From: a virus
Lineage: Duplodnaviria; Heunggongvirae; Uroviricota; Caudoviricetes
Length of the DNA stretch: 13,929 bases
Virus record (IMG/VR): IMGVR_UViG_2713896908_000013
Span: 1-13,929 of that record
Reading direction: 5' to 3' (one strand)
Positions 3,094 to 3,340 of this stretch are shown piece after piece. Each line of letters opens with the position of its first letter. Position 1 is the stretch's first letter. The notes beneath the pieces were generated by a model that worked only from the letters and a program-made list of their open reading frames with translations, made no database searches and was not told the origin of the DNA. The position numbers and the translations under genes were made by a program.

Positions 3094-3114
3094 TTTGCCC
3101 CCAATTTGCCCCAT
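3094..3114 (+). repeat. Two copies of the TTTGCCCC(C/A) motif immediately 3' of the integrase fragment
   Basis: tttgccccc at 3094-3102 and tttgcccca at 3106-3114, the same motif as the array at 3291-3340. Confidence 0.6.
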
Positions 3115-3290
3115 TTAGTACCAGAGAACCGAAATAATGCAAGAAAATCAACAAATTACAAAGAAAGAACAATACAATCTCAATAAGTAAGGGCAAAAAT
3201 CACAACTATCTAATACATAAAGATTTTATTTGTTTTTCAAAACGTTAAATAATATCAATTACTACTACAAGCTACGATAACACCCCCTTT

Positions 3291-3340
3291 TTTTGCCCCA
3301 TTTTTGCCCCTTTTGCAGTGTTTTGCCCCATTTTTGCCAC
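3291..3340 (+). repeat. Five tandem 10-bp direct repeats, consensus TTTTGCCCCA, in helical phase
   Basis: ttttgcccca / tttttgcccc / ttttgcagtg / ttttgcccca / tttttgccac occupy exactly 3291-3340 as consecutive 10-mers. Non-coding context; separated from the two copies at 3094-3114 by an AT-rich spacer. Confidence 0.75.

Follow-up and report, generated by a model that had tools for sequence, protein, structure and literature searches.

The attachment sites of Rac-type prophages in ttcA (K-12 Rac, Rac-SA53 and CP-933R/Sp10; Liu et al. 2015, PMC4632033) are the closest described system to the locus analyzed here. The 5' end of ttcA is the integration site of Rac, which brings a replacement N-terminus (PMC4632033). 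The Rac excisionase, XisR, shifts a 294-bp attR fragment (PMC4632033), and PMC8407004 reports a peak of IHF binding at the attL of K-12 Rac, where an IHF consensus is found close to the start of ttcA. The published descriptions of Rac that could be read define the core, XisR binding and IHF binding, but not arm-type repeats. In the papers that were searchable, no description was found of the arm-type sites of Rac IntR, 933W or PF12167 integrases, PF12167 being the AB domain of the IntBPP-1 subgroup (PMC8138268).

The locus lies within a 13,929-bp stretch of viral DNA, hereafter the window. Positions 3086-3341 of the window very probably constitute a complete lambda-style P'-core-P attachment site of a Rac-type phage at the 5' end of ttcA, in which the repeats of an 8-mer, TTTGCCCC, are the arm-type sites, and which is a composite of an old attL and a second phage. 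The features referred to below, numbered from the first nucleotide of the window, are the following.

2702-3085, + strand: 3' remnant of a Rac-type tyrosine integrase (IntR), a pseudogene, identified by tblastn with Rac-SA53 IntR.
3094-3102, + strand: putative P' (int-proximal) arm-type site 1, TTTGCCCCC, identical to the Rac-SA53 attL arm.
3105-3113, + strand: putative P' arm-type site 2, TTTGCCCCA, assigned on the same basis as site 1.
3137-3190, + strand: phage-borne mimic of ttcA, first 17 codons (MQENQQITKKEQYNLNK), then TAA, from reading of the sequence.
3146-3158, + strand: IHF consensus AATCAACAAATTA (WATCAANNNNTTR), between the P' pair and the core.
3161-3187, no strand: recombination core (common region O), the block common to attL, attR and attP.
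3191-3290, no strand: AT-rich part of the P arm, 72% AT, defined by composition.
3292-3311, + strand: putative distal (P) arm-type pair 1, TTTGCCCCA at 3292-3300 and TTTGCCCCT at 3303-3311.
3311-3320, + strand: degenerate unit between the two P-arm pairs, TTTTGCAGTG (TTGCAGTG at 3313-3320), degenerate in all aligned homologues.
3322-3341, + strand: putative distal (P) arm-type pair 2, TTTGCCCCA at 3322-3330 and the weak TTTGCCACC at 3333-3341.
3975-4925, + strand: prophage-borne gene for an omptin-family protease (Pfam Omptin, E 2e-129).

Five copies of TTTGCCCC were identified, starting at 3094, 3105, 3292, 3303 and 3322, all on the + strand, and a scan of both strands found none elsewhere in the window. 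A sixth copy, TTTGCCACC at 3333-3341, is a weak match to the motif. The arm motifs are located on both sides of the core, two to the left and four to the right, and are unrelated to the core sequence. An earlier reading of this DNA, made from its sequence only, had reported two copies at 3094-3114, and these were confirmed at 3094-3102 and 3105-3113. The same reading described the right-hand group as five consecutive 10-bp repeats. The copies are present, but they form two pairs (3292/3303 and 3322/3333), with 11 bp within each pair and 30 bp from pair to pair, that are split by a degenerate unit, and one of the copies is weak. Judged from its sequence, the degenerate unit at 3313-3320 is probably not a binding site.

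The repeat copies are imperfect, and TRF, which returned an 11-bp period with 70% matches for the array, gave low scores (48-49, with 70-80% matches); both observations would suit a simple repeat that arose by chance or slippage and is carried without function in prophage DNA. For the 9-mer with one mismatch allowed, 4.46 chance matches were estimated, a figure that takes no account of clustering or strand. The observed clustering was, however, never reached by simulation. The maximum number of copies of any 8-mer per 260 bp was two in 257, three in 42 and four in one of 300 Markov-1 simulations, and five copies of any 8-mer within 260 bp were obtained in 0 of the 300. The clustering of TTTGCCCC is real and is not due to chance.

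Located immediately to the left of the repeats is the integrase remnant. By tblastn against the window, it corresponds to residues 268-411 of Rac-SA53 IntR with 72% identity (E 7e-60), and by blastn the region is 83-85% identical to Rac-type phages. Two in-frame stops and a deletion of 16 residues interrupt the remnant, and the arm-binding domain found at the N-terminus of intact homologues (PF12167) is missing from it. The first repeat copy starts 9 bp after its stop codon (TAG, 3083-3085), so that the spacing given in the sequence-only reading, which had recognized a degraded tyrosine-recombinase fragment, was accurate. A promoter/terminator scan found no terminator after int.

Two genes for NleG effectors lie to the left of the integrase remnant (900-1535 and 2004-2639, both on the - strand), and to the right of the att site are genes for omptin, an alpha/beta hydrolase, NleG, tail-fibre assembly, tail fibre, Lom and J. 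The omptin gene is cargo of the right-hand prophage and lies outside the att site. A third gene for an NleG-family T3SS effector (6765-7427, - strand) is also part of this cargo. The three NleG genes flank the att junction on both sides, with two in the remnant and one in the right-hand prophage; in E. coli N1420, cdtABC is found at the cargo position corresponding to the third. The order in the source genome is nifJ-ompN-uspF ... NleG-NleG-int'-att-omptin-hydrolase-NleG-tail fibre-Lom-J. Two non-coding blocks, 3405-3644 and 3699-3962, lie between the P arm and the omptin gene and have no Rfam match; none was found in 2600-4000 at E ≤ 1. They are 72-81% identical to unannotated DNA in many lambdoid/Stx phage records, and in several of the phage records listed the matches fall at the record end. 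The tail-fibre gene contains short imperfect tandem repeats at 8239-8290 and 9909-9962 (27-bp and 21-bp periods), which are presumably coding repeats of the fibre protein.

The stretch between the two groups of repeats, described earlier as an AT-rich spacer of about 175 bp, is 72% AT (3115-3290), but it holds an IHF consensus, the ttcA mimic and the core. Positions 3137-3190 read ATG CAA GAA AAT CAA CAA ATT ACA AAG AAA GAA CAA TAC AAT CTC AAT AAG TAA. The same ttcA start leads into full-length TtcA in a related genome with an empty site, and phage PHB10 has the same mimic. Window 3137-3190 fits the description of Rac, with a core in the first ~20 codons of ttcA and a 5' end supplied by the phage. 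The locus is situated between uspF and ttcA-dbpA; the uspF side is present in the source genome, and ttcA-dbpA adjoins the junction in the empty-site strain.

A core shared with a chromosomal att site, as anticipated for a relic attachment site, was found at 3161-3187 by comparison with the empty-site genome and the Rac-SA53 att. The 26-bp att of Rac-SA53, which is annotated a few codons inside ttcA, overlaps with it. On this sequence comparison, the crossover lies at or left of 3183, since the window matches the empty-site genome through 3183 and differs from it from 3184. The core of the window, ATACAATCTCAATAA, differs from the E. coli core at three positions. This mismatch was considered as a discrepancy and was dropped, as ATACAATCTCAA is the host's own ttcA allele according to the empty-site genome. 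The IHF site at 3146-3158 is the only perfect match to the consensus in the whole window; a strict IHF consensus is absent from the att zones of most distant relatives. Two IHF-like sites with one mismatch are located at ~3230 and 3235, inside 3191-3290, and sites for the accessory proteins (IHF/XisR) are likely to be located in that stretch.

Both halves of the site have counterparts in Rac-SA53. At its attL, the int stop, two copies of TTTGCCCC and the ttcA start follow one another almost identically to the window, and at its uspF-side end (attR) the same core and AT-rich stretch are followed by a near-identical repeat array. In phage PHB10, which encodes an intact 412-aa integrase with 58% protein identity to the remnant, TTTGCCCCTAT and TATGCCCCTAT come right after the int stop and are followed by the ttcA mimic, an AT-rich stretch and 3-4 copies. 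Three of these distal copies are strong and fall in the same five-unit register, and the intervening DNA has diverged. The Rac-SA53 attL and attR, the PHB10 attP and eight further phages, described below, support the proposal that an att site with arm-type sites lies 3' of int.

Window 3144-3962 was matched in ~3,100 of 5,426 complete E. coli genomes, and in only 13 of those was the integrase stump joined to the match. E. coli KMi025, the one genome inspected, carries uspF, the native ttcA start with the core, an array identical to that of the window, omptin and hydrolase; the array adjoins uspF and no integrase is nearby. An array without an adjacent integrase had been put forward as evidence against an attachment site, which is mistaken in the case of a prophage. 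The array end in KMi025 is attR, and for this reason no integrase stands beside it; int sits at the other end of the prophage. A core-variant scan of genome contigs identified ttcA alleles in other genera and one prophage attL in Erwinia, and an exact 31-mer from the NleG/int' junction had no match in the genome-contig scan. The Erwinia sp. V71 sequence (NZ_CBFFRK010000050.1, locus 847-1010) is the attL of a Rac-like prophage at ttcA and comprises the 3' end of int, TTTGCCCCTT and TATGCCCCTT paired at 11-bp spacing, and the core variant of the window. The ttcA target and the arm motif thus extend beyond Escherichia.

A blind 8-mer search was performed over 600 bp around the int stop in nine phages with intact integrases of the same family (PHB10, mEp460, PPompW, phi315, FSL SP-016, CobraSix, CharmingMan, RCIP0098 and phiCTX), which were selected by tblastn with PHB10 Int (33-69% identity) or by blastn of the window region. 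A viral-contig scan with IntR yielded 80 near-identical prophage predictions, mostly ending at the int stop, and these were unsuited to arm comparison. The integration sites differ from ttcA in all of the nine phages but PHB10. The TGCCCCA-type motif was among the three most repeated 8-mers in all eight enterobacterial phages and ranked first in five. In these phages, a TGCCCCA-type pair, 11 bp apart, is located at the int 3' end, at the int stop or just before it, and 2-4 further copies start 206-211 bp from the first pair (198 bp in the window). The copies are always direct, and no inverted copies were found in the att regions of the phages. Two P-arm pairs are also present in phi315, 31 bp apart compared to 30 bp in the window.

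The arrangement extends to phiCTX, where an analogous motif, TGTTCCCA, has a 2+2 layout with 173 bp between pairs. The phiCTX copies (~locus 2114-2305) lie inside a region annotated as 'R1,R2 repeats' (2105-2355), within which the annotated attP (2188-2217) also sits. An 11-bp-spaced counterpart of the P' pair 3094/3105 was found at the int 3' end in all nine phages and in the Erwinia sp. V71 attL. In the window and the eight enterobacterial phages taken together, the motif occurred at 11.4/kb in att zones and at 0.40/kb outside, a 28-fold difference. The family-wide conservation of the array is an observation, and the expectation that the same array would be found elsewhere beside intact integrases was borne out in these nine phages. 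The recurrence of the same geometry in nine independently diverged phages with unrelated intervening sequence, together with the simulations and the motif density, effectively refutes a functionless chance or slippage product, to which we give almost no credence.

The Pfam arm DNA-binding domain PF12167 is present in these integrases (E about 1e-26) and is well conserved among them. The core varies, but the motif keeps its sequence, spacing and orientation, as is expected of arm-type sites of a heterobivalent integrase. From these sequence comparisons, the most likely ligand of the TTTGCCCC(A/C/T) repeats is an IntR-type integrase, through its N-terminal arm-binding domain.

A protein other than Int could be the binder of the motif, and the candidate is the excisionase. 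If the repeats were binding sites of XisR (DUF1233), they would act as a directionality switch, like X1/X1.5/X2 of lambda or the tripartite Xis site of Gifsy-1. Besides the XisR shift of Rac attR cited above, three imperfect direct repeats in attP are bound by Gifsy-1 Xis (PMC2603039). An excisionase of the DUF1233 family is found next to int in every motif-bearing phage examined except phiCTX; as the excisionases are all DUF1233, co-occurrence cannot separate Int sites from Xis sites. What weighs against the Xis reading is position, since copies of the motif flank the core on either side, and the int-proximal arm, which is retained in attL, has them too. The Xis sites of lambda lie on one arm only. 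In addition, phiCTX has the analogous 2+2 layout around attP with no excisionase annotated beside int, and the motif tracks the well conserved arm-binding domain. Binding by XisR is accordingly improbable as the explanation of the repeats, and Int is the inferred motif binder.

The second proposal of the sequence-only reading was that the array, through T-tracts phased with the helical turn, is curved DNA and a target of H-NS or another nucleoid protein that regulates the downstream omptin gene. T4-T7 tracts do occur every 10-11 bp from 3285 to 3336, in surroundings that are 72% AT, and T-tracts are present in the window and its close relatives. The distance to the gene, put at 640 bp, is close to the observed ~635 bp, but the 'ompT' concerned is the omptin cargo of a lambdoid prophage. 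Distant family members, by contrast, keep GCCCCA in their arms without the T-tracts (PPompW, e.g. GTGTCCCATACATGCCCCATTGATGCCCCATAAAC, CobraSix, SP016 and RCIP0098). The gene that follows the same arm also varies, being a tail-fibre gene in Rac-SA53, sitABCD in L009 and an SOS-response peptidase gene in PHB10, which indicates that the array travels with the att site and not with ompT. Furthermore, the array has no promoter-like site nearby according to the promoter/terminator scan. A curved regulatory element of the omptin gene is therefore very unlikely, more so than the excisionase sites although less so than chance; some curvature may be present and could assist wrapping of the intasome.

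The position of the junction within the attachment site was observed by comparison with a related genome that lacks the right-hand prophage. This genome, CP117650.1, is 100% identical to window 2641-3183. Beyond 3183, it continues ...AAC AAA TTG CAA AAA CGC... into full-length ttcA and then dbpA, and it carries the P' pair only. The identity through 3183 indicates that the left half of the site (int', P' pair, IHF consensus and core) is the attL of an old, decayed prophage, and the same comparison indicates that the DNA from 3184 rightwards came with a second phage. E. coli N1420 has the same junction, followed by a complete ~50-kb prophage that ends in xisR, an intact 411-aa intR, ttcA and dbpA. 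By analogy with N1420, the distal array is probably the working attR-side arm of the neighbouring prophage and not a relic. The sequence-only reading of a relic attP/attL thus stands for the int-proximal pair, which is the old attL, but not for the array, which by the empty-site comparison is the P arm of the adjacent prophage.

As read from these sequences, the origin of the composite is a classical tandem integration. An older Rac-like prophage would have decayed to NleG genes and an integrase stump while keeping its attL (P'-O-ttcA). The attP of a second phage would then have recombined with that attL, which would leave int'-P'-O-P here and create a new junction, int-P'-O-ttcA, at the far end of the second prophage, the latter inferred from the E. 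coli equivalent. The int-proximal pair would be a fossil of the old element, and the distal array would serve as the attR-side arm for excision of the neighbouring prophage with IntR, XisR and IHF. In the proposed complex, two arm-type sites would be used in the int-proximal arm and two pairs in the distal arm, and a bend introduced by IHF at 3146-3158 would bring integrase bound to the arms into contact with the core at 3161-3187 as well. The site may still be active.

Several further observations were made at this locus. Genomes with the composite junction, as seen in N1420 and in the sequence to the left of window position 1, lack the copy of the uspF-proximal arm that the older prophage should have left; the remnant has thus lost its own attR by deletion. 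In N1420 (locus 3990-4640), the DNA downstream of uspF switches straight into a frameshifted remnant of a sit-type permease. In empty-site strains, the DNA directly upstream of a functional ttcA, and the gene's 5' end, consist of the old P' arm (window 3086-3136, with both arm-type sites), a layout indicating that phage arm DNA became the ttcA leader; no sigma-70-like promoter was detected in 3086-3136. Between uspF and the native ttcA start of KMi025 (locus 4861-4911), 51 bp align with window 2881-2931 and resemble the box-II region of the integrase (…KRAGIRRRNPYHTRHTF…), with a local score of 47 compared to a shuffle mean of 16.5 and maximum of 27. An integrase fragment is also located just upstream of ttcA in an Enterobacteriaceae MAG (locus 1604-1650). 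It may be that what is taken as the attB side is a fossil attL, left by a still older integration.

These comparisons account for an unannotated repeat carried by more than half of all complete E. coli genomes and give exact prophage boundaries at the ttcA/uspF locus. They also provide an empty-site and occupied-site pair in which the attL of a dead prophage appears to have been reused by a second phage with omptin, hydrolase and an NleG effector. The motif and its spacing could be a simple rule for finding the attP, attL and attR of prophages with PF12167 integrases (Stx, Rac-like and Gifsy/Fels-like). A broader interpretation, which we regard as possible but put forward only tentatively, is that PF12167 integrases share one undescribed, fixed intasome blueprint and that int'-P'-O relics are permanent landing pads. 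The blueprint would comprise a pair of TGCCCCA-type motifs, 11 bp apart, overlapping or just after the int stop, and 1-2 further pairs ~207 bp away, all direct, and would differ from lambda in the number and distribution of sites. Its members would be the PF12167 (IntBPP-1) integrases, including those of Rac, 933W-type Stx phages, PPompW and Fels-1-like phages. As landing pads, the relics would allow successive effector-carrying phages to stack at one locus.

The element belongs to a textbook class, the lambda-type attachment site, and specifically to the Rac/ttcA system; it is real but ordinary. The core, excisionase and IHF binding of Rac have already been published, and the motif, the 11-bp pairing and the ~207-bp arm distance are a modest addition. 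The current understanding of site-specific recombination is unchanged.

With the Rac sites, the window has in common the integrase type, the sequence of the P' arm, a core in the first ttcA codons, the alternative ttcA 5' end supplied by the phage, a P-arm array beside uspF, the XisR excisionase and an IHF consensus at attL. It differs in that both arms are joined in one P'-O-P site, from the remnant and the second prophage, whereas the Rac arms are separated as attL and attR, and in that the core bears the ttcA allele of the host itself.

Like lambda attP (P1, P2/core/P'1-P'3, with IHF, Xis and Fis), the site spans ~250 bp directly 3' of int, belongs with a heterobivalent tyrosine integrase of a family whose N-terminal domain binds arm sites, and has a core flanked by repeated arm motifs of unrelated sequence. 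A candidate IHF site, the perfect consensus at 3146-3158, lies between the P' arm and the core. The arm motif of lambda is C/AAGTCACTAT, whereas that of the window is TGCCCCA-type, and the family of the arm-binding domain is here PF12167. In contrast to lambda, the far arm has two to four sites against two beside int, all of them direct and in 11-bp-spaced pairs, and the core is in a protein-coding 5' end that is duplicated by the phage. The phiCTX attP (R1/R2 repeats, NC_003278) is similar in that the integrase is of the PF12167 type (33% identical) and the annotated attP core is flanked on either side by two copies of the motif, paired at 11-bp spacing. It differs in its motif (TGTTCCCA), in the 173 bp from pair to pair, in belonging to a P2-like Pseudomonas phage, and in its target.

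A related way of stacking effector-carrying prophages is found in the tandem and prophage-in-prophage clusters of STEC and EPEC (Nakamura et al. 2021, PMC8112680). As in those clusters, a resident prophage that is defective retains an att sequence that can be used, another lambdoid phage inserts there, and genes for NleG T3SS effectors accumulate at the junction. In contrast to those clusters, the target here is the remnant's own attL at a normal chromosomal locus, and not a captured attB in an effector locus.
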